DNA of 63,655 bases, filler included. It is 7 parts of 7 records of this genome, joined end to end, with 100 filler letters (N's around TTAATTAATTAA, not from the genome) between each part and the next. Parts side by side here need not be neighbours in the genome. Positions count along the whole stretch, not along the records: positions 24,421 to 31,043 come from DRR723986_17605; 6 more parts are not named here. One strand, given 5' to 3'. Shown piece by piece: positions 7,364 through 48,558 of the stretch. Below the pieces are notes generated by a model. The model was not told the DNA's origin, did not search any database, and worked only from the letters and a program-made list of their open reading frames with translations. A program made the position numbers and the translations under genes. Each line of letters begins with the position of its first letter. Position 1 is the first letter of the stretch.

Positions 7364-7376
7364 GGGGCTTCAGCCG

Positions 7377-7562: not shown

Positions 7563-7604
7563 GTCAGTCGTCCCTTACAGAGTCAGTTCTTGTCTTTATT
7601 GAAG

Positions 7605-7967
7605 TCAATGCATTTGCTTACGAAGTCGCCCGGCAAGAAGGTCTGTAGAAGCCTGTTCCTGCAGGCAGGCAATCAGTTCAGAAATCGTCAGCGCATCGTT
7701 CTCAACGCCATCAAAATCAACCCCCAGTCCGCCATCATCAGTCCGAACCACATGGGCGCTCAGTGTGCAGTGCCCCCGCTCCGAACGTTCCGGAAACCGG
7801 AAGGACAGCTCGATCGTCTGGTTCAGCCTCACATCCGAATAATCGGTCGCAATAAACAGACCACGCCGGGATGCATCCCGGATCATACCAGTCGCTACTG
7901 GCATGCCACGTTTGTAGACCAGAATGGGCAACCCGCCTTCTACCCGTTGGCTTAGCCGGTGTTCCAT
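7605..7967 (-). CDS. Single-domain PilZ protein (c-di-GMP receptor)
   Basis: RxxxR (RLSQR) and DxSxxG (DASRRG) motifs, VVRT..GLGVDF; ATG 7967 with AGGAGG RBS. Confidence 0.85.
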   Translation of the reverse strand: MEHRLSQRVEGGLPILVYKRGMPVATGMIRDASRRGLFIATDYSDVRLNQTIELSFRFPERSERGHCTLSAHVVRTDDGGLGVDFDGVENDALTISELIACLQEQASTDLLAGRLRKQMH

Positions 7968-8013
7968 GCCGTTTCCTCCTGTCAGCTTGCCGAGTGGATA
8001 CCGCAACTCCTCC

Positions 8014-8056
8014 ACTTTACACCTGATTAAATATTAACCATCTTGATTCTGATCAA
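8014..8056 (-). promoter_or_regulatory. FNR/Anr/Dnr-type box with class II promoter upstream of pilZ
   Basis: Perfect TTGAT-N4-ATCAA at 8043-8056; -10-like TAAAGT at 8019-8014 puts the box centre near -42. Confidence 0.75.
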
Positions 8057-8072
8057 GAGGGTGATCACTCGG

Positions 8073-9545: not shown

Positions 9546-11254
9546 GGATCGGCCTCATGCCCCGGCCGCATGGCACCGCCCTTGGCGGGCTCCCCTCCAC
9601 CCTGGCTCAGGGGCTGGAACAGGCTGGACGGCGCCGGGTAGCCAATACGCTCATAAAGGTTGGCCAGGTGCCGGCGATACAGCTGCTCGAAATCCCGAAC
9701 CACCGCTGCCGGGTTGTAATCGCCAAACCACCAGAACCAGTCCGAGCCTTCACACAATCCGAGCTGATGTGTGGCCGCCTGCTTCTGATCTGTGTTGAGG
9801 GAGCCATTATCCAGCGCCCGGTCAAAATGCTGCTTGGCCTCGCACAGCAGGTCCCAGGCCCGGTTTTTGTCGGGGTCGCCTATCCAGGTGGAAAAGGTTC
9901 CATAAATCCAGCTTCCAGCCACCAGTTCCGGGAGTTGCACAGGCTCTGTGTAATGCTCTTCCTGAAGGGTCGAATAAGTGGTCAGCCGCAGTTTCGGGTG
10001 TTTCTCAAGCACCCGGTACAGCTCGTCAAGAAAATGGAAGCCGTTCTCCGGGTAGTACTCCCAGGCATTCTCGCCGTCCAGAATCACCGAGATCACCGGG
10101 TTCTTGTCTTCTCTGGCGATGTTTTCCATGTGATGCACCAGGTCGCCAACCGCGTCCCTGGCGTGCCAGTCGGCATAGGTAAAACCAATCAGATCCGATA
10201 ACCCATCGTCACGAAAAAAAGCCGTTACATTGGCATCAGTAAACCGGTACGGCTGATGGATGCTGGCACCTTCAGGCAAGGATTTATTCGCCCTGGCCTT
10301 GTTGATGCTGTTATTGATGACTGAATCGCCGGAAGCGGTCCATCGAAAGCCTTGCTCGCCAAGCAACAGCAGCGTGGCCTGGCTCAACCCACCTTCAGAG
10401 GCCCAACAACCCGCAGGTTCGGTGCCGAAAAAGCGTTTGAAGGCTCGCCTGCCCTCGGCCAGATGCCAGATGGCCCGCTCTTTCCCCCCTGGATAGTGGT
10501 CATGCTCCGGAAGCGCGATGTCTGGCATCGCTTCTCGGGCGGCACTGAAATCCAGCAACAGGGGCACGATGGGATGGGCCCAGGGGCTCATGGCCAGTTC
10601 CACCTGGCCGGTATGCGCCAGGTGGCGGTAGCGCGGACCTATGCTGGCCATCAATTCTGCGATCACGTCCAGCAATGCCTTGCGATCGTCCAGTGTGTAC
10701 TGATGGGCCTTTTCCTGAAGGCTTTGTACCACTCCATGTTTGCGGCGCACGGTTTCCGCCATCCAGCCCAAGTGGTACCACACCAGCAGATCGGCAAGAA
10801 ACTGGGTAGAAAGATAGCGCTGAATGTCGGGCCGGGTTCGGTATAGTTCGGCCACTTCCGCCAACCGGGCATAGGCGGGAAAACGCTTGATAATCCGCTC
10901 GGCGTTTGCCCTCAGGCACTTTTCCATCAAATCCAGAAATGCCGGTGAGCCAGGTTCCGGCAGCGCCGGATCAACCAGAGCCGCAAGCAGAGGATCGCCG
11001 ATGGTTTGCCCTCCATGGCGCCATCGCTCAATGTGGTACAGATAGGTCTCAATCTGTTCCAGCAGCACCGGCGCGAAGTTCACCACCGCACGGGCATCCG
11101 GGTGGGCTTCCAGGTGCGCAGCCATGTCCACATAATCCTTGATGCAGTGCAGATAGACCCAGGGGAACAGGAACTGCCCATTGCTGTGATCCTGATAATC
11201 CGGCTGGTGCATATGCCAGCAAAGTACCACTGGCGTGCGGGGGTCAGAGGCCAT
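9542..11254 (-). CDS. Glycoside hydrolase family 57 protein
   Basis: [35 protein letters not shown]. Confidence 0.92.
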
Positions 11255-12409
11255 GGGGATAATCCTGCCCGAGCATCTCGGGAGTGATCAGCACAACACC
11301 TTTAGACGACACGTGGAAGCGTTTTTCATCTGCTGTCCGATCAAAACCAACCCGGGTGCCTTCCGGAATCCGGCAGCCGCGGTCAATCACCGCTTTGCGA
11401 ATGTGGCAATCGCGTCCAATGTCCACGTCCGGGAAGATTACAGAGTCCTCCACCTCACTGAAGGAATGCACCCGAACCTGGGAGAACAACAGCGAGTGTC
11501 GAACGTGAGCGCCAGAAACGATGCAGCCGCCGGCCACCATGGAATCGACGGCCGTGCCCCGACGGTTGTCATCATCGAACACGAACTTGGCCGGCGGTAA
11601 CTGTTCCTGGTAAGTCCAGATCGGCCAGTCCGAATCGTACAGATTCAGTTCCGGGCTGATACCGATCAGTTCCAGGTTGGCCTGCCACAGGGAATCGATG
11701 GTTCCGACATCGCGCCAGTATGCCACCTTGTTGTTGACTGGATCCCGGAACGGGAAAGCCGTAACCCGAAGGCGCTTGATCACCGAGGGAATAATATCCT
11801 TGCCGAAATCATGGGAAGAGTTACCGTCCATCTTGTGATCCCGCAGCAGTTCATTAAACAGAACTTTCGTGCTGAACACGTAAATACCCATCGACACCAG
11901 CGCTGTCCCCGGTTTACCCGGCATGGCCTTGGGGTGGGCCGGCTTTTCCTCGAATTCGGTAATGCGTAAATCTTCATCCACCGACATCACCCCGAACGCC
12001 GAAGCTTCTTCGACGAGCACCTCAATACAGCCCACGGTAATATCCGCCTCCTGTTCCACGTGAGCAGCCAGCATGGTGCCGTAATCCATTTTGTAGACAT
12101 GGTCACCTGCCAGAATCAACACGTACTCCGGCTGGTGGCTGCGAATGATGTCCAGGTTCTGCAGCACGGCGTCTGCTGTGCCCTCGTACCAGGAGGTCTC
12201 AATGCGCTGCTGGGCCGGCAACAGTTCCACAAATTCATCCAGCTCCCCCCGCAGGAACCCCCAGCCGCGCTGAATGTGACGGATCAATGAGTGGGATTTG
12301 TACTGGGTGATAACGCCTACCTGACCAATGCCGGAGTTGATGCAGTTGGACAACGGGAAATCGATAATCCTGAACTTACCCCCGAAGGGAACGGCGGGCT
12401 TGGCTCGCC
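11244..12409 (-). CDS. glgC: Glucose-1-phosphate adenylyltransferase, 5'-truncated by contig end
   Basis: [17 protein letters not shown] at the contig edge; [28 protein letters not shown]. Confidence 0.95.
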
Positions 12410-12509
12410 NNNNNNNNNNNNNNNNNNNNNNNNNNNNNNNNNNNNNNNNNNNNTTAATTAATTAANNNNNNNNNNNNNNNNNNNNNNNNNNNNNNNNNNN
12501 NNNNNNNNN
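12410..12509. other. Artificial contig spacer
   Basis: 44 N + TTAATTAATTAA + 44 N. Confidence 0.99.
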
Positions 12510-23052: not shown

Positions 23053-23956
23053 ATGAAACTGCTCCGTTTGTTTTTTCTCCTGCTCCTGCCGATGAACGCA
23101 CTGTCACAAGCGGTGCAAACTGTTGAAGACCGGCCGTCGATTCTGCCTTATTCGCACAACGCGCTACAAGTCTGTTCACAATACTATTTAGCGGAGACTC
23201 CTTTCCAACCCGCATCGCGAGTGTATGCGGATTCGACCTGGATGTCGCAGCTGACACCCTTTTGGACGGGCCTGGAATCTATGACCCTGCATCGACTTGG
23301 CGAATGGGCGCGAATGTATATTATAACCAACAACCATCCATTCATGTTCCGGCACTACGGGCGCCAGGATCTGATAAACATGACCGGCCAGGATCACGAC
23401 TGGCGTGCGTATAATCAAAACCCTCTGCGCCTGGTTCTTGAAACCGAATTTAAACGTCTTGGCCCTGAACACGCCATGGTCCTGATCCCCGACTGTATCT
23501 TCCGTGCCAGAGTTCTGGACATCGTTACTATTGCCGACACCTCTTTGCCTGCCTCGGCTGCGCACAACTTTGCCTGACGGTTTGCGTGACACGGCAGAGT
23601 GTAACATGGAGAATCGCCAATCGAACACGACAAATATCTTTGGTGGCCTGGCCTACGACGGTCCCTTGGATACAATGTCAATGTATCCGGATAGTCAGCG
23701 ATTCATTCGTTTAACACAACACTCGCCAGACTTGCAGCCAGGTGACGCGGTTTTCCTGTTTGTTAACCTGCACTACATTGATGATGAACTTCACACTTTT
23801 GTTCCAGCCAAGTTGTATGGACATGAGCAAGGAGTTTTCCGAATCGAAGATGGCGAAGTAGTTAACAAGCAGAATTTCTTCAATCTTGGCATTCGAGCTT
23901 CCGAATTTGAATTTGGGCAGTCAATCCAGATTTTGATCGATACATTGTCGCGTTAA
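23053..23956 (+). pseudogene. Frameshifted secreted hypothetical protein
   Basis: Signal-peptide ORF MKLLRLFF... stops at 23577; an overlapping frame (open from 23504) continues to 23956 with protein-like sequence. Confidence 0.55.
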
Positions 23957-24320
23957 AATTTCTGAGCGCTTTATGCCTTCCTCATACTTCGGGGCATAGC
24001 TTTTCTGAGTTTTTTTGTTTATCACCGATTTTGCAGCCCAGCAGTCAGCTTTCTCAAAAGCTGACTAGCGCACTTTAGACCATCCCAAATATTTGAGGCA
24101 AACACTAAACAGCTGCAGTCTGAATTTCAGGAGGCTGAAATTCCGGAGTCTGAGAACAACGCTTCCGCAGGAGGGTCCGCATGCGCAAGACGTAGTCTCA
24201 AGAGAATTGAGGCACTCAGTCAGAAGGCTCAGAGTTGCGTAGTTTTGATCTCAGGAAACGAGAATTCTGGCTGGATTGTTATGCGATAATTGCCAATTTC
24301 GGGTCTCAATGACACCCGGG

Positions 24321-24420
24321 NNNNNNNNNNNNNNNNNNNNNNNNNNNNNNNNNNNNNNNNNNNNTTAATTAATTAANNNNNNNNNNNNNNNNNNNNNNNN
24401 NNNNNNNNNNNNNNNNNNNN
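24321..24420. other. Artificial contig spacer
   Basis: 44 N + TTAATTAATTAA + 44 N. Confidence 0.99.
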
Positions 24421-24646
24421 ATCTGTCCCAAAGGCGTTGACGTCAGACACTCCGTTTTCAACCACTTTGACCAGGATCGCAGCCGCTCCAAACGAGATCA
24501 CTTCAAGCAAACCCACAGTGTGCCAGAACAAGCAGAGATGGGTGCCTTGTCTTGGACTGATACAAAGAAGCATGTAGTGCTCAAGGTATCGCAGTAACCT
24601 AATATAGACTGCCAGATTGAGACCACCTCGTCCCCCGGAGAACACC

Positions 24647-25063
24647 ATGAAGCTAGAGTTTCATCATATTAACTACGTGTCAGAGGACATCGACCGGCTT
24701 CATCAGTTCTATACCTCTGTCCTTGGTTTGGACGACATCCCCATCCAGACCTTCCCTCGAACTGAGGCGACAGACGGCAAGGGCTTTAGCGGGAAGATCA
24801 GGTTTGCGACCGATGGTCAGATGCAGATGCACTTGGCCGAGAAGGACCTGTCAGTTGCGTTCAGAAATGGTGAAGTCATCAACCCGGTTGAACGGGGCCA
24901 TATCGCGTTCAGAACGGATGACATTGAGGCGTTCAAGGCAAAGCTGGACTCACAGAATATTCCCTACTCTGACTACGGGACAGCATTTGCGAAGGAGTGG
25001 CATCAGGTCTTCTTTCATGACCCCGAAGGCAACGTGATCGAAGTGCATCAGGCAGTGGGTTAG
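24647..25063 (+). CDS. VOC/glyoxalase family protein
   Basis: HHINY...FYTSVLGL, GHIAF, FFHDPEGNVIEV; GGAG RBS. Confidence 0.92.
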   Translation: MKLEFHHINYVSEDIDRLHQFYTSVLGLDDIPIQTFPRTEATDGKGFSGKIRFATDGQMQMHLAEKDLSVAFRNGEVINPVERGHIAFRTDDIEAFKAKLDSQNIPYSDYGTAFAKEWHQVFFHDPEGNVIEVHQAVG

Positions 25064-25305
25064 GAGATCTCAGCAAAGAGCCGTTGAATGCCTACGATTG
25101 CTGACGGGATGTCCTCCTCAGCTTTGACTATGGTCTCTCAAAGCTTCTTTTGAGGAATGCCCTGCACCGGGTTCCCGTTCCCCAAGTCTTCCCTGTGGCG
25201 CCCTATCCGCGCCTTCGTTCTCGCCGAGTGGGGCGGCCTCTGCACTGGATAACAGACAGCTTCGCTGTCCTTGCGCTGGCCAGTTCGCATTCGTCTGCCC
25301 CCCCC

Positions 25306-25513
25306 CACGAGAGCTCTGGCAACCTTACGCCCGCTGACGTCTGTTTCGGGCGCGCAAAGCAGATTCTGAAACAGCGAGAGGAAATCAAATGAAAAACCAT
25401 GATCAAGCGGCGCTTGCGCCACGAAACTGAAAACGAATATTAACACTCAAGGGTGAGCCAGAGCCTCCAAATGGAAATCACCTTAGATGTCCCGAATTGT
25501 CCAACGGCAGACA
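25306..25513 (+). mobile_element. Degenerate 3' end of an IS3/IS481-type insertion sequence
   Basis: HESSGNLTPADVCFGRAKQILKQREEIK*KTMIKRRLRH resembles the alphaproteobacterial transposase tail HESLxNLTPADVYFGR with a premature stop; IR-like end ...GGCAGACA at 25513. Confidence 0.7.
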
Positions 25514-25527
25514 GGAAACGAACGTCA

Positions 25528-26091
25528 ATGCAGGATCGACGGTCAATCGACGCGATAACGCGGTTTATCTTCTGTGCTGACGAACCGTGCCAGGTGGATC
25601 TGGCTCTTGTATTGGGTGCACCATCAATCTCGAACGTGGAGCCTGCGATTGCGCTGTACCACGAGGGTTTGACAACCCGCATCCTGATCACCGGCGCTGG
25701 GCCTGCTGGTACACAAGAGCCGGAATGGCGCGTTTACCGTGACTACGCGATATCCTGCGAGGTGCCGGAAAAGGACATCCTGATTGAGCCTGACGCTACC
25801 AACACACGTGAGAACCTGTTGTTTTCAGAACGGATTATAGCGCGCGAACTGGGTTGGGACATAATCAATAAAATCGCAATTTGCTGCAAGCCGCTGCACA
25901 CACGCCGCGCTTACATGACAGCTCGGCAATTCCTGCCGAAACCGGTTGATCTGGTGGTTCTGCCGCCACGCCACCCCTCGGATATTCAGGCCGACAACTG
26001 GTGGCTCAAACCACATGGAAAGGAACGGGTCCTGGGCGAGATCGGTCGGATTGCACAGTACACCTCAAAGGGTGATATTTCGATTGAATGA
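25528..26091 (+). CDS. DUF218 (YdcF/ElyC/SanA-like) protein
   Basis: ALVLG, ILITGA, ILIEPDATNTRENL, HTRRA motifs. Confidence 0.88.
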   Translation: MQDRRSIDAITRFIFCADEPCQVDLALVLGAPSISNVEPAIALYHEGLTTRILITGAGPAGTQEPEWRVYRDYAISCEVPEKDILIEPDATNTRENLLFSERIIARELGWDIINKIAICCKPLHTRRAYMTARQFLPKPVDLVVLPPRHPSDIQADNWWLKPHGKERVLGEIGRIAQYTSKGDISIE

Positions 26092-29000
26092 CCACTTTCC
26101 TGCCCTGAATGTTCCAGCACACGCATCGAAAGCGGTACACCTGATCGGCATTCTCGGCGCTGGGATGAGCGCACTTGCCAAATTGTTCCTTGAACGCGGA
26201 TGGCTGGTTTCGGGTGGCGACAGCACAGTCAATGACCGGCTCGGTCCGTTGCGCGATGCGGGCGCGGATGTCTGGATCGGCAACGCACCCTCGGATTTGG
26301 CGAATTTAGACCTACTCGTCTATAGCCCTGCGATTGCCTGGGATCACCCCGACCTCGTGCAGGCGCGAAGCTTGGGGGTCCCATTGATGACGCGGGCTCG
26401 AGCACTGGCTGGGCTGATTGAGGGGCGTCCTGTTATCAGCGTGGCGGGCAGCCATGGCAAAACGACGACGACCGCAATGCTCGCCGTCTTACTCGAACGT
26501 GCCGGGTTGCGACCGGGCTACATGGTGGGCGAAGCGTGTCAGACGCTGGAAGCAGGCAACGCCCGTTGGTCCGACATCGGACCCTTTGTCAACGAATCCT
26601 GCGAAGCGTTCAGGGCTCTTGATTTCTGGATGCCCGTCAATTGCATCGTGACCGGCATCGACGACGAACACAGCGATCACTATGGCTCATTCGAGGATCT
26701 CGAGGCCGCGTTCGGCGACTTTATGCACCGGCTGCCCGAGGGTGGGCGCATCCTGGTGTGTTCTGACGATGAGAAGCTGTGCGAAGTTTCCCGAGGTCAG
26801 CGAAGGCATGTCGAGGACTTTGGTACGTCCGAAGGTGCCCTCTGGCGCGCGCGCATTCGCGAGTTGAATGCTTCCGAAACCAGGTTCGATTTGTATCATC
26901 GCGGGCAATTTGAGTGCAGCGTTTATCTACCGCTTCCAGGTAGGCACAACGCGCTCAACGCCTTGGCTGCAATTGCCATGGCCACGGGATATGGTTGCGC
27001 ACCTTCCTGGTCGGCAAAGATCCTTGCTGAATTCACCTCGGTCCCGCGCCGCTGGCAACGGATCGGATGCTGGGCGGGGGTGAGCATCTATGATGATATT
27101 GCCCATCATCCTTCTGAAGTGGCTGTCACACTGAACAATGCCCGCCGAGTGGCCGGTCCGCTTGGTCGTCTGGTCGCAGTTCTCCAACCCCAGCTGATAA
27201 GCCGGTTGAGACGGTTGGAAGGCGCGTTCCTCAAGGCACTTTCGATCGCCGATCAGGTTGTTTTGCTGCCCGTTGATACAGCGGGGGAACATGGCTCGGG
27301 CGACGATACCGGAGCAAGCTTGTGCGACAGGCTGCAAGAGGCCGGAGTCCAAGCATGCAGGGCACGAACGATCGACGAGGCTCTGCCGATGGTTGCCGGG
27401 ATTGTAAAATCCGGTGATTGCGTCGTCGCGATGGGCCCTGCTCTGGCGCATAATTTTGCAACTGCGCTGCCCGATTTCCTAGGCAGCCGCTCCGCCATGC
27501 CACCCAAGGCTGAACCTTCGCCCGAAGAGGCGGCTTCGCCCCCGCGTCTCCTGCATAGCTGGTTCGAAGAACAGGTAAGCAAACGCCCGGATGCACTATG
27601 CCTAGTGGAACGCGAACGCGCTTGGACCTATGGCGAAATCGATGCGGAAGCCGAGAAAGTCGCAGCCAGTCTGATTGCACGCGCGTTGCCGCGTGACGCG
27701 CTGGTTGTTCTCGCGATTGAAAAATCAGGGTGGTTTCTTGCATTGGTGTTGGGAGTTCTGAAAGCTGGCTGCGCCTTCGTCCCGATCGATCCCGCCATGC
27801 GGCGTGCGGCCCTGAACGACGTGTTGCATCTCGTCGGAGCCGCGCTGGTCATCGAAGGCACGACGGCCACAGCTGCACCGGCCACGGCATTGCCGACAAT
27901 TGATCTGGACACGTTCCTCAAAGAGGTCAAACAGGTAACAGCACCTGTAGCCCGCCTCAGCCTCCGCCCCAGCCATCTTGCGTATGGCATCTTTACCTCA
28001 GGTTCGACCGGCGCCCCGCGTTTGGTCGGGGTGTCGCATGAAAATGTCTCGAACTTGATTGAGTATTCGATCGGACAGCTTTTCTCGCCCGAGGATCTGA
28101 AGCTTACTCCATTCATTGACTCGATCAGTTTCGATGCGTGCGTGCACCAGATGTTTGCCACCCTTAGCTGCGGCGGATGCCTGTTGCTGGAAAAAGACCT
28201 TGCGTCGCTTGTACAATCAGACCGGTTTCAGCAGATTACCAATCTGGGCGGCACACCCTCGGTCCTTGGCAGTCTGGCGACTAGCGGCCGTTTGCCAAGC
28301 GGAATACGCGTGATCTCTTTGGGTGGGGAGGTCATTCCGCAGGGGCTAATCGCGATGCTGCGCAAGCATCAGGGCTTGAAAAAGATCTATAATTTCTACG
28401 GCCCGACCGAGACAACCATATTCTCGACTGTGGCAGAACTCCTGGGAGGCGCGGCCGACAGTCCCCGGACAAGGGCCGGGACCAACATCGGGTATCCGGT
28501 CGCCGGTACGACGATCCGCATCCTCGACCCGGAAGGAAACGAGTTGCCTGACGGGAAAGCCGGAGAGATCACGGTTGCAGGCAAAGGGGTCGCACGTGGT
28601 TACCTCGGCGACCCGGTGCAGACTGCGGCACGGTTCGGCGCAGCCGCTGACGGAAGGCAGTTCCTTACGAAAGATCTCGGCCAGCGATTGGCAGATGGAT
28701 CCATCGATTTTCTCGGGCGCATGGATGATCAGATCAAGTTCAAAGGGGTGCGCCTTGACCCAGTCGAGATCGAGATCCAAATCGAAGCTTGCGACGGCAT
28801 AGAGCGCGCAGCCGTTGTTCACGGGCAAGCCGACGGTGGCGATTCTATTCTTGCAGCCTTTGTCGTTGCTGCACCGGGAACTGATATGACGCGGTTGCGC
28901 CAGCATCTGGCCGGTCAGTTGCCCAAGGTCATGGTTCCGGGCCTCATAACCCGGGTCGACAGTTTGCCGATGACTGCAACCGGCAAGGTATTGCGCAGAG

Positions 29001-29944
29001 AGCTGGCCCAGCTCGTGCCTGCATCACTCCGATCCTCGGAGGAGCCCGCCTTGCTTGACGGGGTGGAGCGACGAGTCCTGCAGATCTGGCAATCTGTGCT
29101 GGGGCGCCCCGATCTGTTGAAAGACCACGATTTCTTTGACGCTGGTGGCGACTCACTGGCGTCAATGCAGATGGTCCTGACTGTGGAAAAGGCTTTTGGC
29201 ATTCGGTTGTCAGCCCAGACTATGGAAAGCTTGGGCACCGTGGCGGCAATGTCCGCTGACATCCGCCGACAGGTTTCGGATCCCTCGTCTGTCAAGAAGG
29301 CCCGGCGAGATCTCGGGGTACGGCTTCTTGATCAGCAACGCGCCTATCTTGCGGGGTGGGGCGATGGCAAGATCCGGCAAAGCGGTTTTGTCCGCAGCCT
29401 TGACGGCATGCGCGGACCCGCAGGACTTGTATGGTGCTGTCAGGGTTTCAACGAGTACCGCGCACTTGCCGAAGAGTTGCAAGGAGATTTGCCGGTTTAC
29501 GGGATGCGGTCGGGACACTTGATCATGGAATACAGTCCTGACACGATTCAGAGCCTTGCAATGCTGTACCGTGACGAATTGCTGAAGTGGCAGCCCGAAG
29601 GTCCGTTCTTGCTGGGCGGTAACTGCCAAGGGGCGACCATCGCACGCGCTACGGCACTGGCCCTGCGAGCCCTCGGACGCGAGGTCAGTGGATTGATCCT
29701 GATGGAACAGTTCAGCATTTGGCCTTACGATCAGCGGGTCGGGCTTATTTTCGGGCGAGACAGCCTGCACAACCCGTTCTCGCGCCAAGCGGACCCAGTG
29801 CCAATGCTTGATAGCGCATATCCCTCGGGCTTTGGCTTGCGCATTGTCGAAGGCGGGCACGGGCAGTTCTTTTCCCCCGAAAACATTGGCTCTCTGGCTG
29901 ACGGGATCCGGACACTTTTGCCTTGGAACGATTCCCCAGTTTAG
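26084..29944 (+). CDS. MurC-like Mur ligase fused to an NRPS adenylation-thiolation-thioesterase module
   Basis: MurC motifs GILGAGMS, GSHGKTTT, PGRHNALNA, DDIAHHP; A-domain FTSGSTG, YGPTE, GRMDDQIK, TGK; PCP FFDAGGDSL; TE GGNCQG...GGHG. One continuous frame; TTG start overlaps the DUF218 stop. Confidence 0.9.
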   Translation: MNDHFPALNVPAHASKAVHLIGILGAGMSALAKLFLERGWLVSGGDSTVNDRLGPLRDAGADVWIGNAPSDLANLDLLVYSPAIAWDHPDLVQARSLGVPLMTRARALAGLIEGRPVISVAGSHGKTTTTAMLAVLLERAGLRPGYMVGEACQTLEAGNARWSDIGPFVNESCEAFRALDFWMPVNCIVTGIDDEHSDHYGSFEDLEAAFGDFMHRLPEGGRILVCSDDEKLCEVSRGQRRHVEDFGTSEGALWRARIRELNASETRFDLYHRGQFECSVYLPLPGRHNALNALAAIAMATGYGCAPSWSAKILAEFTSVPRRWQRIGCWAGVSIYDDIAHHPSEVAVTLNNARRVAGPLGRLVAVLQPQLISRLRRLEGAFLKALSIADQVVLLPVDTAGEHGSGDDTGASLCDRLQEAGVQACRARTIDEALPMVAGIVKSGDCVVAMGPALAHNFATALPDFLGSRSAMPPKAEPSPEEAASPPRLLHSWFEEQVSKRPDALCLVERERAWTYGEIDAEAEKVAASLIARALPRDALVVLAIEKSGWFLALVLGVLKAGCAFVPIDPAMRRAALNDVLHLVGAALVIEGTTATAAPATALPTIDLDTFLKEVKQVTAPVARLSLRPSHLAYGIFTSGSTGAPRLVGVSHENVSNLIEYSIGQLFSPEDLKLTPFIDSISFDACVHQMFATLSCGGCLLLEKDLASLVQSDRFQQITNLGGTPSVLGSLATSGRLPSGIRVISLGGEVIPQGLIAMLRKHQGLKKIYNFYGPTETTIFSTVAELLGGAADSPRTRAGTNIGYPVAGTTIRILDPEGNELPDGKAGEITVAGKGVARGYLGDPVQTAARFGAAADGRQFLTKDLGQRLADGSIDFLGRMDDQIKFKGVRLDPVEIEIQIEACDGIERAAVVHGQADGGDSILAAFVVAAPGTDMTRLRQHLAGQLPKVMVPGLITRVDSLPMTATGKVLRRELAQLVPASLRSSEEPALLDGVERRVLQIWQSVLGRPDLLKDHDFFDAGGDSLASMQMVLTVEKAFGIRLSAQTMESLGTVAAMSADIRRQVSDPSSVKKARRDLGVRLLDQQRAYLAGWGDGKIRQSGFVRSLDGMRGPAGLVWCCQGFNEYRALAEELQGDLPVYGMRSGHLIMEYSPDTIQSLAMLYRDELLKWQPEGPFLLGGNCQGATIARATALALRALGREVSGLILMEQFSIWPYDQRVGLIFGRDSLHNPFSRQADPVPMLDSAYPSGFGLRIVEGGHGQFFSPENIGSLADGIRTLLPWNDSPV

Positions 29945-30789
29945 GCCGGGATTGCGATCAACCGATGGCGAGTGCAGGCAAGACCGCTGTAGTCCACAAC
30001 GTGGCTGACGTGTGCCGGGATCACCTTGAACCCAGCTTGCTGAAGCAAGTGGTCCATTTCCCTACTCGGGATAAAGTACTCGAACTGACACGTGGGCGAA
30101 GTTACCTGAACCAGGTGGCCTGTTTCTTCATCGATCAGTGTTCGTCCCAAAAAATGGGTCGCCATTTGCGTATACTCTTCAGGGCTGCGCGCCAGATCCG
30201 AAACAGACCAGACGGAGCCTGACCACCTGTCCGGCCAGCGTGACATGGCTTTCGCGACCGGTTGGGCCGGTGCTGCAATGGGTTTCGCATCGGTCGATAG
30301 GCTGATCAGGGACAGACCGTTGGGCTTCAGTAGCGCTCTCGTTGATTGAAGCAGTGCAGGCGCATGTGCTGGTGGCATACAGTTCAGAACGAAATCCTGA
30401 ACGATCAGATCAAAGCTGTCAGCTTCGAGAGCATCCCCCAAATTGCATGCATCCAGTTGCAGAAAATCGATCTCGGGCATTTCAATGCCCATTTCCGTGT
30501 AGATTTCCGGAATGGGGAGACGGTCAATGACAAGAATGCTTGGATCCGTCACCGCGTGCTCCCCAAGCACCTGCCGCAGCGCTCGCGCATTGGACGGCGT
30601 GGAATAACCTATCACCAGACAGCGTGCCTTGGGCGACAAACCCGCCAGTGCCGAGTTGAATTCTGGGGCGCTGGAAAACGCGGCAAGGCTGCTGGCCAAC
30701 GTAGGAGCGTCAGGTTTGAAATGCGGGCTACCTGGAACATAGCGCGCGACCGAGTGCAGGGGGGTGGCCAGCGTGTTTGCGGTGTTCAT
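29941..30789 (-). CDS. Class I SAM-dependent methyltransferase-like protein
   Basis: DFLQLDA, DSFDLIV, LLKPNG, LLQQAGF; motif I glycine loop is degenerate. Confidence 0.7.
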   Translation of the reverse strand: MNTANTLATPLHSVARYVPGSPHFKPDAPTLASSLAAFSSAPEFNSALAGLSPKARCLVIGYSTPSNARALRQVLGEHAVTDPSILVIDRLPIPEIYTEMGIEMPEIDFLQLDACNLGDALEADSFDLIVQDFVLNCMPPAHAPALLQSTRALLKPNGLSLISLSTDAKPIAAPAQPVAKAMSRWPDRWSGSVWSVSDLARSPEEYTQMATHFLGRTLIDEETGHLVQVTSPTCQFEYFIPSREMDHLLQQAGFKVIPAHVSHVVDYSGLACTRHRLIAIPA

Positions 30790-31043
30790 TCTTGCCCCCA
30801 GAGAAAGATCACCTGACGATAATTCAATGGGTTGTGGATGGAAAGCAAGTCTCTCTTTATGCGGGGAATGCCAGGAAACGGGTTCGTTTCCTCGCGTCTG
30901 AGGTCAGTGCCAACGGGATCGTCTGGACGGGATTGGAGAGCGAGGACAGCATTGCGGAACTGTGCCGCCGCAAGTGTATTGCCCAGAGCCTGTTTTTCAG
31001 CGGGTCGAAGGCTAACCGCGCCGCCGCTCTCGCCGAGTGGCGC
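30786..31043 (-). CDS. Partial hypothetical protein (C-terminus only)
   Basis: Open frame from the contig edge ending ...PRIKRDLLSIHNPLNYRQVIFLWGQE*, with ATGA overlap onto the methyltransferase. Confidence 0.6.
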   Translation of the reverse strand, partial: APLGESGGAVSLRPAEKQALGNTLAAAQFRNAVLALQSRPDDPVGTDLRREETNPFPGIPRIKRDLLSIHNPLNYRQVIFLWGQE

Positions 31044-31143
31044 NNNNNNNNNNNNNNNNNNNNNNNNNNNNNNNNNNNNNNNNNNNNTTAATTAATTAAN
31101 NNNNNNNNNNNNNNNNNNNNNNNNNNNNNNNNNNNNNNNNNNN
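31044..31143. other. Artificial contig spacer
   Basis: 44 N + TTAATTAATTAA + 44 N. Confidence 0.99.
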
Positions 31144-31144
31144 T

Positions 31145-33487
31145 AGTTTAGATTTTGGATTTTATCCAGATTCAGTTTATGATGCATTAAATGCTGATAT
31201 AGTTGGTAGTTGGGCAGCATGTAATCAAACCTCAATTTATTGGATACAATTTCAAAACATAGGTACAACAGTACCTTCAGGGGTAGTTCACCTTAAACTA
31301 GATGACAGCATAACCTTTGTGAACGCATTTGTGCCTCCGGATTCAATATCAGGTCAAAATATCTATTGGAGTTATGATAGTCTAAATTATTTTGGAACTG
31401 ACGGAATGAAATTGCGCGTACTCATGCCTAATTTCATGAGTATCAACGACACAGTCACAAGTTATTTATCGGTGACGGCTGATTCATTATCCGGAACTGT
31501 TTTCACCGCATATGACACGTTATCCCAATTTATTGTATGCGCTTATGACCCAAATGATAAAATAGCAGAACCAGCTGGTATAGATAGCCTGGGATTCATC
31601 CCGCTATCTACGAATGAAATAGAATATACAATAAGATTTCAAAATACAGGCACCGACACTGCTCATTCAATTGTTATAGAAGATTACCTAGACCAAAATT
31701 TAAATTGGTCAACTCTACAGCCAATATCATCAAGCCATTCTATGGATTTGGAAGTTTATCCAAATGGTCTAATTAAATTCGTTTTTGATGATATCAAACT
31801 CCTCGACAGTAACGCCAATGAACCTGAAAGTCATGGTTATGTAAAGTATAAAATTAACCTTTTACCGAGCTTAAACTCAGGCACTCAAATCAAAAATACT
31901 GCACATATATTTTTTGATTCGAACCCAGCTGTAATCACAAACACAAAACTTCATACCCTTTTTGACTGTGATAGTAGTCTCAAAAATGCAATTATTCCAA
32001 CCGTAGGTTGCGAAAATGACGTGGTAATAGGATCGATTGTGGACGCAACTTCGGCTAGCGACTATAATTGGGAGCTTGACTCATTTTATATTTATTCTGG
32101 TCAAAATTGGAATTGGATTGCAGATACTGCTGGTACATTTAACCTTAAAGTAACAATTTCCAATCAGTTTTGCACAACAGACACTATTCTGTCTTTAAAC
32201 ATTGAAGAAGATAATCCACCCGAAATAATAGATTCAATTTATATATGCCAGGGTGAAAGTACCTCTATCTTTGGAAATTTAGAGAGTATCCCAGGAATTT
32301 ATTCTAACACCTTGATGTCTATTAACGGTTGTGATTCAACAATTCAAATTGTTCTGTTGGAGAATCCCACATTTGTTACTGATCTACCAGATGTATACGT
32401 TTGTCCAGGTGAGAGTGCGATAATATTTGGAGGGTCTAAGACAATTGAGGGGATTTATCACGACACCTTAACCTCTATGAACGGTTGTGATTCAATATTG
32501 CAGAAAGAGCTCATTTTTTATCCTATTCTGACAACAACTTTACCTATAATGTATAATTGCCAGGGTGATAGTACAATGGTCTTTGGTAATTTCGAGAATA
32601 TACCCGGTTTTTATTATGACACTTTGAATTCAATTAACGGCTGTGATTCAATTTTAGAAGTTGAACTAGACGAATTGGCCCCACAATATTCTTTGCTAAA
32701 TGATGCCGTTATTTGTCCTGGTGACAGCACAATTATATTTGGTAATTATCAAGTGCTTCCGGGTATTTATGTTGATACTTTGAGCTCATCTCTTGGCTGT
32801 GACTCAATTTTAATGATGAGCCTTGTCCATTTACCTACTCAAAGTAGCCAAATACAATATGAAATATGCCAGGGCGACAGTATCTTAATCTATGGTAACT
32901 TTGTTTCATCTTCTGGAATATACACAGACTCATTATCCAATTCATACGGTTGTGATTCAATAATTAATACTGAATTAATTGTTAATTCCTTACCCAACAT
33001 ACAAATTCAAAATTTAAATCTAGATACGTCATGTATTTATCATGACCAAATACTTTTGACAGGATCTCCTTTAGGGGGTAATTTTTCAGGAACAGGTGTC
33101 ACCGGAAGTTATTTCAATCCAACTATAGCAGGGGTAGGTAACCATTGGGTTTACTATACATTTACTGACAATAACCTCTGTAGTTCAATTGATTCAATAG
33201 ACATTTATATTAACGACTGTTTAGGACTGACGACCTCAGAACTAGAAAAAATTAAAGTTTATCCTAATCCAGCTACATCTGAGATAATAATAGATTTAAC
33301 GAATACATCAATGAATACGGTCCAGGTAGAATTATATGATGGAATTGGTAAAAAACTTAAAGAAGTATCTGATATTACCGCGAAACAATTCTTATTTGAA
33401 ACAGCACAATTATCACGTGGAGTTTACTATCTGAAATTATCATATTTAGATGAACATCATCTTGTTAAACTGGTAATTCAACAATAA
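31145..33487 (+). CDS. T9SS type A sorting protein with GCDS repeats, 5'-truncated
   Basis: Frame open from the contig start; YDPNDK...YTIRFQNTG domain; five GCDS repeats; VYPNPA...GVYYLK CTD. Confidence 0.88.
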   Translation, partial: SLDFGFYPDSVYDALNADIVGSWAACNQTSIYWIQFQNIGTTVPSGVVHLKLDDSITFVNAFVPPDSISGQNIYWSYDSLNYFGTDGMKLRVLMPNFMSINDTVTSYLSVTADSLSGTVFTAYDTLSQFIVCAYDPNDKIAEPAGIDSLGFIPLSTNEIEYTIRFQNTGTDTAHSIVIEDYLDQNLNWSTLQPISSSHSMDLEVYPNGLIKFVFDDIKLLDSNANEPESHGYVKYKINLLPSLNSGTQIKNTAHIFFDSNPAVITNTKLHTLFDCDSSLKNAIIPTVGCENDVVIGSIVDATSASDYNWELDSFYIYSGQNWNWIADTAGTFNLKVTISNQFCTTDTILSLNIEEDNPPEIIDSIYICQGESTSIFGNLESIPGIYSNTLMSINGCDSTIQIVLLENPTFVTDLPDVYVCPGESAIIFGGSKTIEGIYHDTLTSMNGCDSILQKELIFYPILTTTLPIMYNCQGDSTMVFGNFENIPGFYYDTLNSINGCDSILEVELDELAPQYSLLNDAVICPGDSTIIFGNYQVLPGIYVDTLSSSLGCDSILMMSLVHLPTQSSQIQYEICQGDSILIYGNFVSSSGIYTDSLSNSYGCDSIINTELIVNSLPNIQIQNLNLDTSCIYHDQILLTGSPLGGNFSGTGVTGSYFNPTIAGVGNHWVYYTFTDNNLCSSIDSIDIYINDCLGLTTSELEKIKVYPNPATSEIIIDLTNTSMNTVQVELYDGIGKKLKEVSDITAKQFLFETAQLSRGVYYLKLSYLDEHHLVKLVIQQ

Positions 33488-40252: not shown

Positions 40253-40352
40253 NNNNNNNNNNNNNNNNNNNNNNNNNNNNNNNNNNNNNNNNNNNNTTAA
40301 TTAATTAANNNNNNNNNNNNNNNNNNNNNNNNNNNNNNNNNNNNNNNNNNNN
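40253..40352. other. Artificial contig spacer
   Basis: 44 N + TTAATTAATTAA + 44 N. Confidence 0.99.
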
Positions 40353-40389: not shown

Positions 40390-43300
40390 GTGACGATGAC
40401 TTCCGCTGACGCGTGCGAGCTGTGTTCCGCGCATGCTTTCGACCGTCTTGCCCGCGATTCCCATGCCATGGTGCTGGAGGTGGACGGACGGCGGTTCATT
40501 GCGCCGCGCCGCCACCTGGCCCGCTGGCGAGACCTCTCCGACGCTGAGCGCGCCGGGTTGGTGCGCTTCATCGCAGATACGCAGGCGGAGCTCGAAACCG
40601 GAGGTGGCGTTGCCGAGGTACGCTTCGTCGAGACGACCGGCCACATGCATCTCGTCGTCAGCCCGCCGATGGCCCATGTCGCCGGCGCGGAGCATGGACG
40701 GAGGGGCCCTTTACCCGCTGTGTCGGACGCGCCGCATGACCTGCCGCTGATCTCGGGCGGGGAGGATGCGCTGCATGGCCACCTGCTGCCGCTGATCGAC
40801 CGGGCAGTCGAGGTCGAGCTGGCGGTCTCCTTCCTGATGAAGTCCGGCGCGCGCATGGTGTTGCCGCAGTTGCGTGACCTGCTGGAGCGCGGCGGGCGGT
40901 TGCGTTTGCTCACAGGCGATTACCTCGGCGTGACGGAGCCCGACGCGCTGCGGATGGTGGCGGACCTCGAAGGCGACCGCGCCTTGCACGTCTTCCAGGC
41001 GGCGGCGATGCCGTTCCATCCCAAAGCGTGGATGTTCCGGTTCGGCGACGGGACCGGGGCGCTGATCGTGGGGTCGTCGAACCTGTCGCAGACGGCGCTG
41101 ACGCGGGGCGTCGAATGGAACCTCCGTCAATTCGACCAGGCGGATGCCCTGACGCTGGCCACGGCGCGCGCCGCCTTCGAGGCGTTGCTGGCCCGGCCCG
41201 AGGTGACGGCGCTGACCCCCGAATGGATCGACGCCTACGAGGCGCGGCGCATCACGGCGCCGCCTGCGGTGACGGCCATCGCCCCCGAGCCGGAGGGGCC
41301 GACGCCCGAACCGCACGGCATCCAGCGCGACGCTCTGGCCGCGCTGGAGGCGACGCGGGCCAAGGGCTACGGTGCGGGTTTGGTGGTGCTGGCGACCGGC
41401 CTCGGCAAGACCTATCTCGCCGCCTTCGACAGCCGCGCCTTCGGGCGGGTGCTTTTCGTCGCACACCGGGACGAGATCCTGACCCAGGCCATGGCGACCT
41501 TCCGCGCGGTCCGGCCCAAGGCGCGGCTGGGAAAATACACCCGGCAGGAGAAGGACGCGGGCGCAGAGATCCTCTTTGCCTCCGTGCAGACGCTGTCCCG
41601 GCTGGCGCATCTTGGGCAATTCACGCCAGACGCCTTCGATTACATCGTGGTGGACGAGTTCCACCATGCCGCTGCATCGACCTACCGGCGGATCATCGAG
41701 TATTTCTCGCCGCGGTTCCTGTTGGGCCTAACGGCGACCCCGGACCGGTCGGATGGTGGCGATCTGCTCGGGCTGTGCGAGGAAAACCTCGTCTACCAAT
41801 GCGACCTCTGGGAGGGGATCGGGCAGGAGTTGCTGTGCCCGTTCAAGTATTACGGCGTGCCAGATCTGGTGGAATACGCGCAGGTGCCCTGGCGCAACGG
41901 GCGGTTCGACGAGGCGGCGCTGACCGAGGCCGTCGCCACGCAGGCGCGGGCGGAGAACGCTCTCGAACAGCTGGCCACGCGCGGGGGCAAGAAGGCGATC
42001 GGCTTTTGCGTCTCTCGCAGGCATGCCGACTTCATGGCGGAGTTCTCGAATGCCCGCGGGTTGCGCACCGTAGCCGTCCATTCCGGCGAGACCTCGGCCC
42101 CCCGTGCCTCGGCGTTGCAAGCCTTGGAGGAGGGCGCGCTCGACGTGGTCTACGCGGTGGACATGTTCAACGAGGGCGTCGACGTGCCCTCTATCGATAC
42201 CGTGCTGATGTTGCGCCCGACAGAGAGCATCGTGATCTGGTTGCAGCAACTCGGGCGGGGTCTGAGGCGCTCGGCCGAAAAGACCCACCTTTCGGTGATC
42301 GACTACATCGGGAACCACCGGATCTTCCTGACGAAGGCGCGGGCGCTGCTGCAAGCCGGGGCAGGCGAGCGCGCGCTGAAGATGGCGCTGGATGCCTTCA
42401 CGGCAGGGACGCTGGAATTCCCTGCGGGCTGCGAGGTGACCTACGACCTCGAAACGCTGGACCTGCTGAAATCGCTGATCCGGCTGCCGCGCAACGGCGA
42501 GGAGTTGGACGCCTTCTATCAGGATTTCCGCGACCGGCAGGGGGTGCGGCCGACCGCCTCCGAAATGCAGCACGCGGGCTTCGATCCGCGGCGTACGGGG
42601 CACGGCGGGTGGCTGACATACGTGCGCGACATGGGCGACCTGACCGAACCGGAAACCAGGGTGCTGGACCGCGAGGGCGTGCTCTTGGAGATGGTCGAGA
42701 CCGTGGCGCTGAAGAACGCAGGGCGCATGGTGGCCCTGAAGGCGATGGTCGAGGCCGGGCAGATGCCGGGTCGCATGGAGGTCGCGGCGTTGACGCAGGG
42801 GGTCGCGCGGATGGCCGCGCGCAACCCGGACCTGGCGGCGGACCTGCAAGTCGATCCCGCACGCGTGGACGCCATCACGGAGCAGTTGCGCTCTGGGGCG
42901 CTGGCGGAGTGGGCAGGGACGCGCTGGTTCTCCCTGGATGGGGATCGCTTTGCGACCGAGGGTCTGACCGATGGTGCCATTTCGGGTCTTCTCGGGGAGT
43001 TGGTCGACTGGCGAATCCAGAAGCACCTCGCCCGGCGCGGACTGATCTACGAGCAGCCCGAGGTCACCTACGGCGGTGGCGCCGAAGACCCGACGCCATA
43101 CGCGCCGGCGGGGCCAAAACTCTGGGCCGAATATATGCGCGATGAGATCGCGCCGCTCTTCGGAGACACCTTCAAGTCCGGGTCCTGGAACCAGGGCATC
43201 GTCCCCATCAAGGGCGCGCAGGTGCTTGTCCTGCTGGTGACGCTGGACAAGAAGGCCCTCGCCACGGGGGATCACTACAAGGATCATTTCGAGACGGAAA

Positions 43301-43557
43301 CACGCTTCTCCTGGCAGTCGCAGACCAGCACTCGCAAGGATGGCAAGCACGGCCTGATCCTGAGCGGCAAAGAACCAGGATGGAGCGTTCACCTGTTCAT
43401 CCGCGGCGCAAAGCTGCGGGACGGCAAGGCCGCGCCCTTTCGTTATGCCGGGCCGGTGACATTCGCCGGATGGGAGGGCGAAGCGCCGATCACCGTGCAA
43501 TGGGACCTCTCGGAGCCCCTGCCTGCTGCACTGCACACGGTGTTCGGTCTGCGGTAG
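40390..43557 (+). CDS. SauUSI-like type IV restriction endonuclease (degenerate HIT + PLD nuclease + SF2 helicase + DUF3427)
   Basis: HPK...GSSN PLD motif; ATGLGKT, DEFHH, TAT, QQLGRGLR; C-terminal YKDHF...FSWQSQ...HLFIR. Confidence 0.85.
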   Translation: MTMTSADACELCSAHAFDRLARDSHAMVLEVDGRRFIAPRRHLARWRDLSDAERAGLVRFIADTQAELETGGGVAEVRFVETTGHMHLVVSPPMAHVAGAEHGRRGPLPAVSDAPHDLPLISGGEDALHGHLLPLIDRAVEVELAVSFLMKSGARMVLPQLRDLLERGGRLRLLTGDYLGVTEPDALRMVADLEGDRALHVFQAAAMPFHPKAWMFRFGDGTGALIVGSSNLSQTALTRGVEWNLRQFDQADALTLATARAAFEALLARPEVTALTPEWIDAYEARRITAPPAVTAIAPEPEGPTPEPHGIQRDALAALEATRAKGYGAGLVVLATGLGKTYLAAFDSRAFGRVLFVAHRDEILTQAMATFRAVRPKARLGKYTRQEKDAGAEILFASVQTLSRLAHLGQFTPDAFDYIVVDEFHHAAASTYRRIIEYFSPRFLLGLTATPDRSDGGDLLGLCEENLVYQCDLWEGIGQELLCPFKYYGVPDLVEYAQVPWRNGRFDEAALTEAVATQARAENALEQLATRGGKKAIGFCVSRRHADFMAEFSNARGLRTVAVHSGETSAPRASALQALEEGALDVVYAVDMFNEGVDVPSIDTVLMLRPTESIVIWLQQLGRGLRRSAEKTHLSVIDYIGNHRIFLTKARALLQAGAGERALKMALDAFTAGTLEFPAGCEVTYDLETLDLLKSLIRLPRNGEELDAFYQDFRDRQGVRPTASEMQHAGFDPRRTGHGGWLTYVRDMGDLTEPETRVLDREGVLLEMVETVALKNAGRMVALKAMVEAGQMPGRMEVAALTQGVARMAARNPDLAADLQVDPARVDAITEQLRSGALAEWAGTRWFSLDGDRFATEGLTDGAISGLLGELVDWRIQKHLARRGLIYEQPEVTYGGGAEDPTPYAPAGPKLWAEYMRDEIAPLFGDTFKSGSWNQGIVPIKGAQVLVLLVTLDKKALATGDHYKDHFETETRFSWQSQTSTRKDGKHGLILSGKEPGWSVHLFIRGAKLRDGKAAPFRYAGPVTFAGWEGEAPITVQWDLSEPLPAALHTVFGLR

Positions 43558-48458: not shown

Positions 48459-48558
48459 NNNNNNNNNNNNNNNNNNNNNNNNNNNNNNNNNNNNNNNNNN
48501 NNTTAATTAATTAANNNNNNNNNNNNNNNNNNNNNNNNNNNNNNNNNNNNNNNNNNNN
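48459..48558. other. Artificial contig spacer
   Basis: 44 N + TTAATTAATTAA + 44 N. Confidence 0.99.

Follow-up and report, generated by a model that had tools for sequence, protein, structure and literature searches.

A MurC paralogue fused in frame to a condensation-domain-less NRPS module, and its DUF218/Upr-like partner: a candidate source of muramic-acid-amino-acid compounds

In butirosin biosynthesis, the amine of a thioester-bound amino acid is acylated by an ATP-dependent acyl-phosphate ligase, BtrJ, acting on BtrI. The thioesterases of ObiF (obafluorin) and SulM (sulfazecin) use a Cys nucleophile and form beta-lactone or beta-lactam rings. Proteins of the DUF218 family have lately been assigned a function in a preprint of October 2026 (bioRxiv 10.64898/2026.10.14.759067), according to which the periplasmic members SanA, ElyC and YgjQ hydrolyse the phosphoacetal bond from undecaprenyl diphosphate (C55-PP) to N-acetylmuramic acid (MurNAc) or N-acetylglucosamine (GlcNAc), a Thr-His-Arg-Glu cluster catalyses attack of water on the sugar side, and the cytoplasmic YdcF is without several of the catalytic residues. 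Here, a gene is described from a stretch of DNA of 63,655 nucleotides (the window, meaning the whole stretch analysed), in which a MurC-like ligase is joined in one reading frame to the adenylation (A), carrier (T) and thioesterase (TE) domains of a non-ribosomal peptide synthetase (NRPS). It belongs to a conserved, uncharacterised family in which a MurC paralogue is joined to an A-T-TE module devoid of a condensation (C) domain and appears to work with a cytoplasmic DUF218/Upr-like hydrolase.

A Mur-ligase/NRPS fusion was not found described in the full-text literature searched, outside of which lie subscription journals and supplements, in agreement with a preliminary description of this DNA that knew of no characterised example. 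Nor is the fusion mentioned in the portions consulted of the Lipocone and aaRS-like NRPS papers. The parts are known; their combination and the chemistry that it implies are not, and the mechanism is potentially new.

The fusion gene and its reading frame

The window is made of seven pieces joined by six identical 100-nt linkers of the form N44-TTAATTAATTAA-N44 (12410-12509, 24321-24420, 31044-31143, 40253-40352, 48459-48558 and 57515-57614). The gene and its parts are the following, with residues counted along the open frame (P0001 numbering):

24421-31043: contig with the fusion gene, 6623 bp, G+C 0.574, between the linkers at 24321-24420 and 31044-31143
26084-29944, + strand: fusion gene, MurC-like ligase-linker-A-T-TE, 1286 aa (1290 aa from the alternative start GTG 26072)
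26135-27436, + strand: Mur ligase part, residues 64-497, with UDP (uridine diphosphate)-binding N domain, ATPase middle domain (P-loop GSHGKTTT) and C domain
27437-27562, + strand: linker, residues 498-539, rich in Pro, Ala, Ser and Glu
27563-28987, + strand: adenylation domain, residues 540-1014 (Pfam AMP-binding 540-887, 5.3e-61; AMP-binding_C 941-1014)
29069-29257, + strand: carrier (T/PCP) domain (Pfam PP-binding 1042-1104, 1.9e-14; GGDSL at 1067-1071)
29318-29938, + strand: type-I thioesterase domain with a Cys nucleophile (Pfam PF00975 Thioesterase 1170-1253, 5.9e-11)

The + strand is open without interruption from 25946 to 29944 (1332 codons), and this is the frame along which residues are numbered. 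The likely starts are TTG 26084, located 8 nt downstream of a AAAGGGTGA stretch, and GTG 26072; members of a database cluster with 98% identity are 1286 or 1290 aa long and come from contigs of 19-34 kb. The TTG start taken in the preliminary description is plausible and is one of the two used in database gene calls, and the in-frame fusion at 26084-29944 is borne out as a single open reading frame (ORF) with three Mur domains, linker, A, T and TE in the Pfam assignment and no C domain. Scans for sigma-70 promoters and terminators over 23800-31400 gave no more sites than shuffled sequence.

The N-terminal part matches Mur_ligase (64-159, 1.3e-15), Mur_ligase_M (166-346, 2.5e-20) and Mur_ligase_C (368-497, 7.2e-15) in Pfam. 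With the NCBIfam murC model TIGR01082 it scores 336.1 bits, just over the cut-off of 335.1, and the fused homologues fall on both sides of that cut-off (370.8 and 349 above, 325.3 and 301.3 below). The score with the Mpl model TIGR01081, 152.2 bits, is far under its cut-off of 388.7. The adenylation part has LgrA as best match in the PDB (4.8e-108), where ObiF1 is also found, as an A-domain match only, and it scores 297.4 bits with the adenylation-domain model TIGR01733, under the cut-off of 317.4. The phosphopantetheine serine is S1070, inside GGDSL (codon 29153-29155). In the TE, the catalytic triad is C1227 (GGNCQG, codon 29624-29626), E1254 and H1305, with Cys instead of the usual Ser; the best PDB match of this part, 4zxh, has GGWCFG at the equivalent place. 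A condensation domain (PF00668) was not detected in the fusion protein at E <= 0.01, and no unassigned stretch is big enough for one.

Continuity of the DNA at the Mur/A junction near 27500, on which the preliminary description depended, is confirmed by contigs from other sequencing runs. Four runs were aligned, and parts left uncovered in this comparison carry no meaning. Three contigs cross the junction: one of 1536 nt from run X6 (26285-27820, 7 differences), one of 6253 nt from run X14 (27310-30789) and one of 188 nt from the RNA-library run X16 (27403-27590), the last of which is not in itself proof of transcription. In total, the RNA-library runs X16 and X17 contribute four and three pieces on these genes, again without thereby proving transcription. 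Near-identical DNA is present, whole or in part, in 19 of the 23 public runs listed, and 15 have at least half of the sampled words; these runs come from 13 studies, mainly of aquatic or marine metagenomes. Three of the runs are flagged as potential sources of the DNA. The fusion gene contains neither linker nor N.

Descent, conservation and the upstream partner

A Mur ligase and an AMP-binding domain on one chain were found in 52 of the 120 best matches listed (P0002-P0053; 1205-1457 aa; 30-98% identity), so homologues of the architecture exist; the other 68 were ordinary NRPSs or MurC joined to Ddl, MurB or MurG. When the Mur part alone was searched against 1.84 billion representatives, 43 of the 150 top matches had the motif E-[AST]-C-E-A-[FHY], and 29 of these exceeded 1000 aa. 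In a FastTree tree of 234 Mur domains with E. coli Mpl as outgroup, outside the fused clade, all 79 long proteins group with 5 shorter rows (467-824 aa, of which P0139 is visibly cut within the A domain) in one clade with SH-like support of 99, placed among canonical MurC. Since all fused Mur domains fall in this one clade, the tree indicates a single origin of the fusion. The names that such proteins carry in databases, 'UDP-N-acetylmuramate--L-alanine ligase' or 'amino acid adenylation domain-containing protein', both hide the architecture.

The gene is sporadic, with 1 holder among 401 genomes in a sample of the family of G001 and at least 3 among 351 in a sample of the family of G406, the latter being a lower bound, as the filter there was stricter. 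Source names among the holders include Synechococcus sp. CBW1006, Falsiroseomonas selenitidurans, Chthoniobacterales MAG (metagenome-assembled genome) and Tabrizicola soli; the genomes with a fused homologue are G298, G406 (locus L001, Rhodobacter capsulatus DSM 1710), G465 and G692. Each of the four also has a separate canonical murC, which reaches 512-517 bits where the fused copy has 301-371; in G298, the canonical gene adjoins further Mur-ligase matches. The fused protein is an extra MurC paralogue and not the housekeeping MurC, a role that the preliminary description had also thought unlikely. One of its arguments, a position outside a division and cell wall (dcw) cluster, is void, since the fusion contig spans 24421-31043 only and the linkers on either side place the neighbours on other contigs, so that nothing about such a cluster can be read here.

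Among genomes, G692 has the module most like that of the window: the Mur and A parts are 65% identical, the TE 82%, the DUF218 protein 72% and the methyltransferase 59%, in identical order. On this resemblance, the contig probably comes from an alphaproteobacterium of the family of G692. A motif-based DNA scan of metagenome contigs gave 37 loci; the Mur part is present in 36 but not in L096, for which no Mur match was found. In an A1-motif search of genome contigs, matches at the best 80 loci covered the NRPS part only (query residues 483-1326), and of these 80 only L001 holds the fusion, by pattern scan. As for irregular loci, the metagenomic fusion copy L097:7576-11806 aligns in pieces (Mur in three, TE in two) and is probably frameshifted or decaying. 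Locus L123:1211-1362, at the end of a 1499-nt contig, has two oppositely oriented motif matches 70 nt apart, likely an inverted-repeat assembly artefact.

Catalytic residues are kept throughout alignment A1, which comprises 53 family members. The Mur part aligns to H. influenzae MurC (HiMurC, 1gqq) at 6.6e-65, and its P-loop K172 together with E217, E220 and H242, the equivalents of the ATP/Mg residues Lys129, Glu173, Glu176 and His198, is invariant (53/53), as is the HHP motif (H387, H388), while the UDP-binding GxGGxGM...SD motif is conserved at 90% or more. The A-domain residues D730 and K1014, equivalent to Asp235 and Lys517, and the carrier serine S1070 are likewise found in 53/53. In the TE, C1227 is present in 53/53, E/D1254 in 52/53 and H1305 in 51/53.

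The site for the incoming nucleophile is altered. In HiMurC, the incoming amino acid is bound by His376, Arg377, Arg380, Tyr346 and His348, according to PMC3060825. The position of His376 is Gln in 49 of the 53 fused members; over the wider tree set, Gln stands there in 71 of the 79 fused rows vs 8 of 155 others, 5 of those 8 being within the fused clade. The position of Arg377 is Leu in 46/53, and Tyr346 is retained in just 7/53. In addition, the positions of Asp175, Ser177 and Asp178 are occupied by Cys, Ala and Phe/His/Tyr in all 53. The substitutions in the nucleophile site would fit a substrate without a free carboxylate. As a separate observation, many canonical MurC proteins are also without Arg377, having HL, HT or HQ, so the textbook residues of the alanine site are less universal than the literature implies.

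Asp235 of adenylation domains pairs with the free alpha-amino group of the substrate. Invariance of D730 therefore points to a substrate with a free alpha-amine. The ten pocket positions were set from motif anchors in GrsA numbering, which we take as approximate, with position 278 ambiguous; no amino-acid substrate is named, because of that ambiguity. At these approximate positions, the window subclade has D-A-H..S-G-F-I-F-K and the R. capsulatus subclade D-V-G..I-A-A-V-E-K. Different subclades thus seem to use different amino acids, and the difference would bring the family closer to specialised metabolism than to a housekeeping step. A perfect match between Mur residue 222 (F vs H/Y) and the class of A pocket (16/16 vs 37/37) was discarded as evidence, being one clade and hence a single event.

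Directly upstream of the fusion gene lies the following partner:

25528-26091, + strand: DUF218/Upr-like protein, 187 aa (Pfam PF02698, 7.1e-20), ATG 25528, with the frame open from GTG 25453

Its stop overlaps the fusion start TTG 26084 by 8 nt. Among the metagenome loci, L001 and L086, 35 extend at least 600 nt upstream of the fusion, and 32 of these 35 have a DUF218 gene directly before it in the same orientation; three further loci are too short upstream to judge. The same arrangement occurs in L129, L130 and the window. The gap between the alignment blocks of the two genes is 13-104 nt, and once 314 nt. In four clusters (P0019-P0021 and P0124), the DUF218 domain is itself fused N-terminally. 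The L086 partner gene matches PF02698 at 1.3e-19, and the window protein is 57% identical to the upstream gene of L086, 43% to that of L001 and 72% to that of L130. Across genomes, the DUF218 partners share 43-72% identity, vs 31-65% for the fusion itself.

No membrane segment was found in the window DUF218 protein, and no counterpart of the N-terminal hydrophobic segment of YgjQ; the partner is therefore likely cytoplasmic. Its Thr, His and Arg correspond in the alignment to T132, H156 and R159 of YgjQ/UprC, and T, H, RR and a C-terminal E are invariant across 26 partner sequences. The His missing from cytoplasmic YdcF is retained. A sequence search of the PDB with the partner gave no match at E <= 1. 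Its coupling or fusion to a cytoplasmic ligase makes a nucleotide sugar the likely substrate, and not a lipid-linked glycan.

Beyond the preliminary description, the present analysis thus adds a DUF218/Upr-like partner, a Cys as TE nucleophile, the methyltransferase gene described below and the subclade dependence of the A-domain pocket.

A proposed reaction sequence and its alternatives

The reading preferred here is that the Mur domain uses UDP-MurNAc to N-acylate an amino acid tethered to the carrier, the Cys-TE releases the product and the DUF218 protein removes UDP. Its probability is put at roughly 0.45, a little under an even chance. In the first step, an alpha-amino acid would be adenylated by the A domain and loaded on the phosphopantetheine arm of T. 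The Mur domain would then bind UDP-MurNAc, or a close UDP-sugar acid, and phosphorylate its carboxylate with ATP, after which the tethered amino acid would attack through its free amine to give UDP-MurNAc-aminoacyl-S-T, with Mur in the role of a condensation domain. The Cys-thioesterase could next take over the acyl group and release it via hydrolysis, transfer or cyclisation. Cleavage of the sugar-1-diphosphate bond by the DUF218 partner would yield UDP and a free N-acetylmuramyl-amino-acid derivative, and in the window subclade the product might be tailored by the S-adenosylmethionine (SAM) methyltransferase. Replacement of the C domain by Mur would be consistent with the invariant equivalents of Asp235 and Lys517, the intact UDP and ATP/Mg motifs and the change of His376 to Gln. 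On this basis, the product is probably a muramic-acid-amino-acid compound and not ordinary cell wall.

A more far-reaching version is held only tentatively, with the odds leaning against it as a whole: that a Mur ligase serves as NRPS condensation catalyst, and that the Cys-TE and the first cytoplasmic Upr-like hydrolase acting on a nucleotide sugar free an N-acetylmuramyl-amino-acid metabolite, sometimes methylated or cyclised, whose amino acid depends on the subclade.

Several points weigh against the preferred reading. The contact it supposes between the T domain and the Mur active site is hypothetical; the predicted complex of the two domains scored 0.01, which has no weight in either direction. 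Mere hydrolysis by the TE would give a product like that of ordinary MurC, leaving the NRPS part without an evident need, and MurC fused to cell-wall enzymes with which it does not pass substrate (Ddl, MurB, MurG) is common among the matches listed. In the amino-acid site, Arg380 (50/53) and His348 (53/53) are retained, which may still allow binding of a free amino acid. Arg377 is not diagnostic, Arg being there in only 81 of 155 non-fused MurC rows, and 32 MurC representatives outside the clade, either stand-alone or fused otherwise (e.g. P0148, P0152, P0157 and P0164), have Cys at the Asp175 position as well. As for the partner, the DUF218 gene is missing next to the fusion in three loci, L088, L114 (these two with identical match statistics, apparently one sequence) and L118. 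MAFFT does not place the DUF218 Glu on Glu191, so that its role is deduced from invariance alone. Moreover, the substrates in the preprint are lipid-linked only (bioRxiv 10.64898/2026.10.14.759067), and DUF218 enzymes are not known to act on nucleotide sugars.

One alternative keeps the order of the domains as the order of the steps. Here Mur would ligate a free amino acid to UDP-MurNAc, the A domain would adenylate the carboxylate of the resulting UDP-MurNAc-amino acid and load it on T, and the Cys-TE would transfer it to an acceptor, for instance an amine, hydroxyl or polymer. The sequence Mur-A-T-TE corresponds to these steps, the MurC amino-acid site still has Arg380 and His348, and a Cys-TE is suited to acyl transfer. 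A further hand-over is suggested by the glycosyltransferase-like tail in three clusters (P0135, P0176 and P0185), an addition of about 450 aa at the C-terminus (residues ~1290-1800) in which they are 37-39% identical to each other. There, Pfam gives a weak Glyco_trans_1_2 match (E 0.0027, below cut-off) and language-model features reach 0.97 to clusters named glycosyl transferase; taken as a lead only, this tail may hint at anomeric-carbon chemistry, which would count for the preferred reading as well. However, the Asp235 equivalent is kept in 53/53 members, whereas an N-acylated substrate would have no need of that Asp, and His376 and Arg377 of MurC are substituted, so this order of events is considered unlikely.

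It is equally hard to favour two separate activities in cell-wall supply or recycling carried on one chain, with an alternative MurC/Mpl, an A-T-TE part that supplies or edits a stem amino acid or dipeptide, and a DUF218 protein that trims surplus precursor. MurC fusions with peptidoglycan enzymes are frequent among the matches, TIGR01082 is narrowly reached (336.1 vs 335.1), NagZ-like GH3 genes are close by in 4 loci (L097, L105, L112 and L119), and the DUF218 enzymes of the preprint work in peptidoglycan and carrier recycling (bioRxiv 10.64898/2026.10.14.759067). Yet the gene is rare (1/401 and at least 3/351 genomes) and a canonical murC is also present in 4/4 of its holders, the A pocket depends on the subclade, unlike in a housekeeping step, the Mpl score is much lower than required (152 bits vs 388.7) and the wider neighbourhood is not conserved.

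The Mur domain might also have been recruited to another UDP-sugar acid or to a non-sugar acid, giving a nucleoside-peptide or glyco-amino-acid product unrelated to muramic acid. The clade-wide changes beside the catalytic Glu (D175C, S177A and D178F/H/Y, 53/53) would suit such a shift, as would the variable A-domain pocket, the small-molecule methyltransferase partner of one subclade and the AraC regulator and pyridoxal phosphate (PLP) enzyme adjoining the R. capsulatus copy. On the other hand, the nearest relatives by sequence and tree are genuine MurC, the UDP-binding motif is retained, the DUF218 enzymes characterised to date act on MurNAc- or GlcNAc-1-diphosphate bonds (bioRxiv 10.64898/2026.10.14.759067), and no further biosynthetic genes are conserved around the pair. 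This recruitment is regarded as improbable, to the same degree as the two preceding alternatives. Finally, an assembly chimera or a decaying, functionless pseudogene, which the patchwork of contigs in the window and the broken gene of the related locus L097 might bring to mind, is refuted for practical purposes by a gene free of linker or N, contigs of independent runs bridging the junction, and 52 clusters of like architecture, with 79 long rows in one clade, in which the frame and all catalytic residues are intact.

If the Mur domain does act on a carrier-tethered amino acid, a Mur ligase would be a third type of amide-forming catalyst in non-ribosomal synthesis, besides C domains and ATP-grasp ligases, and peptidoglycan precursor metabolism would be tied directly to the logic of secondary metabolites. 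On the more far-reaching version, the outcome would be a new class of small molecules derived from cell-wall precursors, acting as signal, inhibitor of Mur enzymes or building block, as well as a new route to NRPS amide bonds. Muramic-acid-derived compounds would be indicated in Alphaproteobacteria from aquatic habitats, in cyanobacteria and in Verrucomicrobia. For the DUF218/Upr-like family, only lately de-orphaned, a cytoplasmic role is predicted. Rhodobacter capsulatus DSM 1710, which is genetically tractable, is a candidate host.

Neighbouring genes and comparison with described systems

The fusion contig holds four genes only: the glyoxalase-fold gene, the DUF218 gene, the fusion and a convergent methyltransferase-like gene. 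The two others are located as follows:

24617-25063, + strand: glyoxalase/VOC-fold protein (Pfam PF00903, 1.7e-08)
29941-30789, - strand: class-I SAM-methyltransferase-fold protein, 282 aa (Pfam Methyltransf_23, 29.7 bits vs a cut-off of 27)

The methyltransferase gene runs towards the fusion gene, and the 3' ends of the two overlap by 4 nt. Counterparts in the same position occur in L086 (35% identity), L130 (59%), L090 (95%) and L089 (44%), and the arrangement is limited to the window subclade formed by these loci. The predicted model has pLDDT 90 and pTM 0.89, and the Foldseek matches listed from the PDB are all SAM-dependent small-molecule methyltransferases (E ~1e-9, TM 0.4-0.6); the Gly-rich SAM-binding loop appears atypical in alignment A3. 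For the glyoxalase, GNAT and other window ORFs, most of them on other contigs, tblastn found no counterpart in 39 related loci. Beyond DUF218, no conserved neighbour is general across the related loci.

NagZ-like GH3 genes stand beside the DUF218-fusion pair at L097:6293-7486, L105:1049-2236, L112:1508-2530 and L119:5692-6945; PF00933 was confirmed in three, and L097 was assigned by clustering only. These neighbours hint at a link to peptidoglycan recycling. In R. capsulatus DSM 1710 (L001, with the fusion at about 8500-12484), the pair is preceded by an AraC-family regulator (6976-7833, + strand) and a PLP-dependent PALP enzyme (5824-6810, - strand), and a P-type ATPase follows downstream.

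Because the window consists of joined contigs, gene order across linker points is meaningless. Among the seven pieces, G+C varies between 0.36 and 0.66, a spread so wide that the bin may be mixed, and the type-IX-secretion proteins and other surrounding genes of the window are on other contigs, possibly of other organisms. At 31319-33487 (+), on a contig of 36% G+C unrelated to the fusion, a DUF7619 protein with a type-IX-secretion sorting tail is encoded, which contains tandem repeats of about 156 nt (52 aa) at 32236-32960. The first contig carries a glycogen/alpha-glucan row at 4859-12353 (-), with a DUF3417-phosphorylase, a GH77 4-alpha-glucanotransferase, a GH57 protein and a GlgC-like nucleotidyl transferase. 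A ResIII/Helicase_C/DUF3427 protein of 1055 aa is located at 40390-43557 (+) on a contig of 66% G+C.

Among described systems, MurC (TIGR01082; HiMurC 1gqq/1p3d) shares with the fusion the three-domain fold, the UDP Gly-rich motif, the P-loop, the equivalents of Glu173, Glu176 and His198 and the HHP motif. The fusion differs from it in carrying A-T-TE and in having Gln376, Leu377, Cys175, Ala177 and Phe/His/Tyr178; whereas MurC is universal, the fused copy is sporadic and a second one beside canonical murC. In MurC-Ddl (PRK14573), MurC-MurB and MurG-MurC, a MurC-type ligase is also joined to another enzyme, but there the partner is a standard peptidoglycan enzyme and the ligase the cell's only MurC, while here an NRPS part is joined to a divergent paralogue.

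With the NRPS termination modules AB3403 (C-A-T-TE, 4zxh) and EntF, the fusion has in common the order A, T, type-I TE and all core motifs, and with the TE of AB3403 also the Cys in the GxCxG box; unlike both, it has a Mur ligase at the position of the C domain. The thioesterases of ObiF and SulM likewise have Cys for Ser, but no sign of ring formation is seen in the fusion TE. BtrJ resembles the proposed Mur step in its logic, and differs in its ATP-grasp fold, in being free-standing and in involving no nucleotide sugar.

The upstream partner has the Pfam DUF218 domain of SanA (UprA), ElyC (UprB) and YgjQ (UprC), with Thr, His and Arg in the register of YgjQ. In contrast to those periplasmic, membrane-anchored hydrolases of C55-PP-glycans, it is anchorless and comes coupled with, or fused to, a cytoplasmic ligase, and it differs from the cytoplasmic DUF218 protein YdcF in keeping the His.

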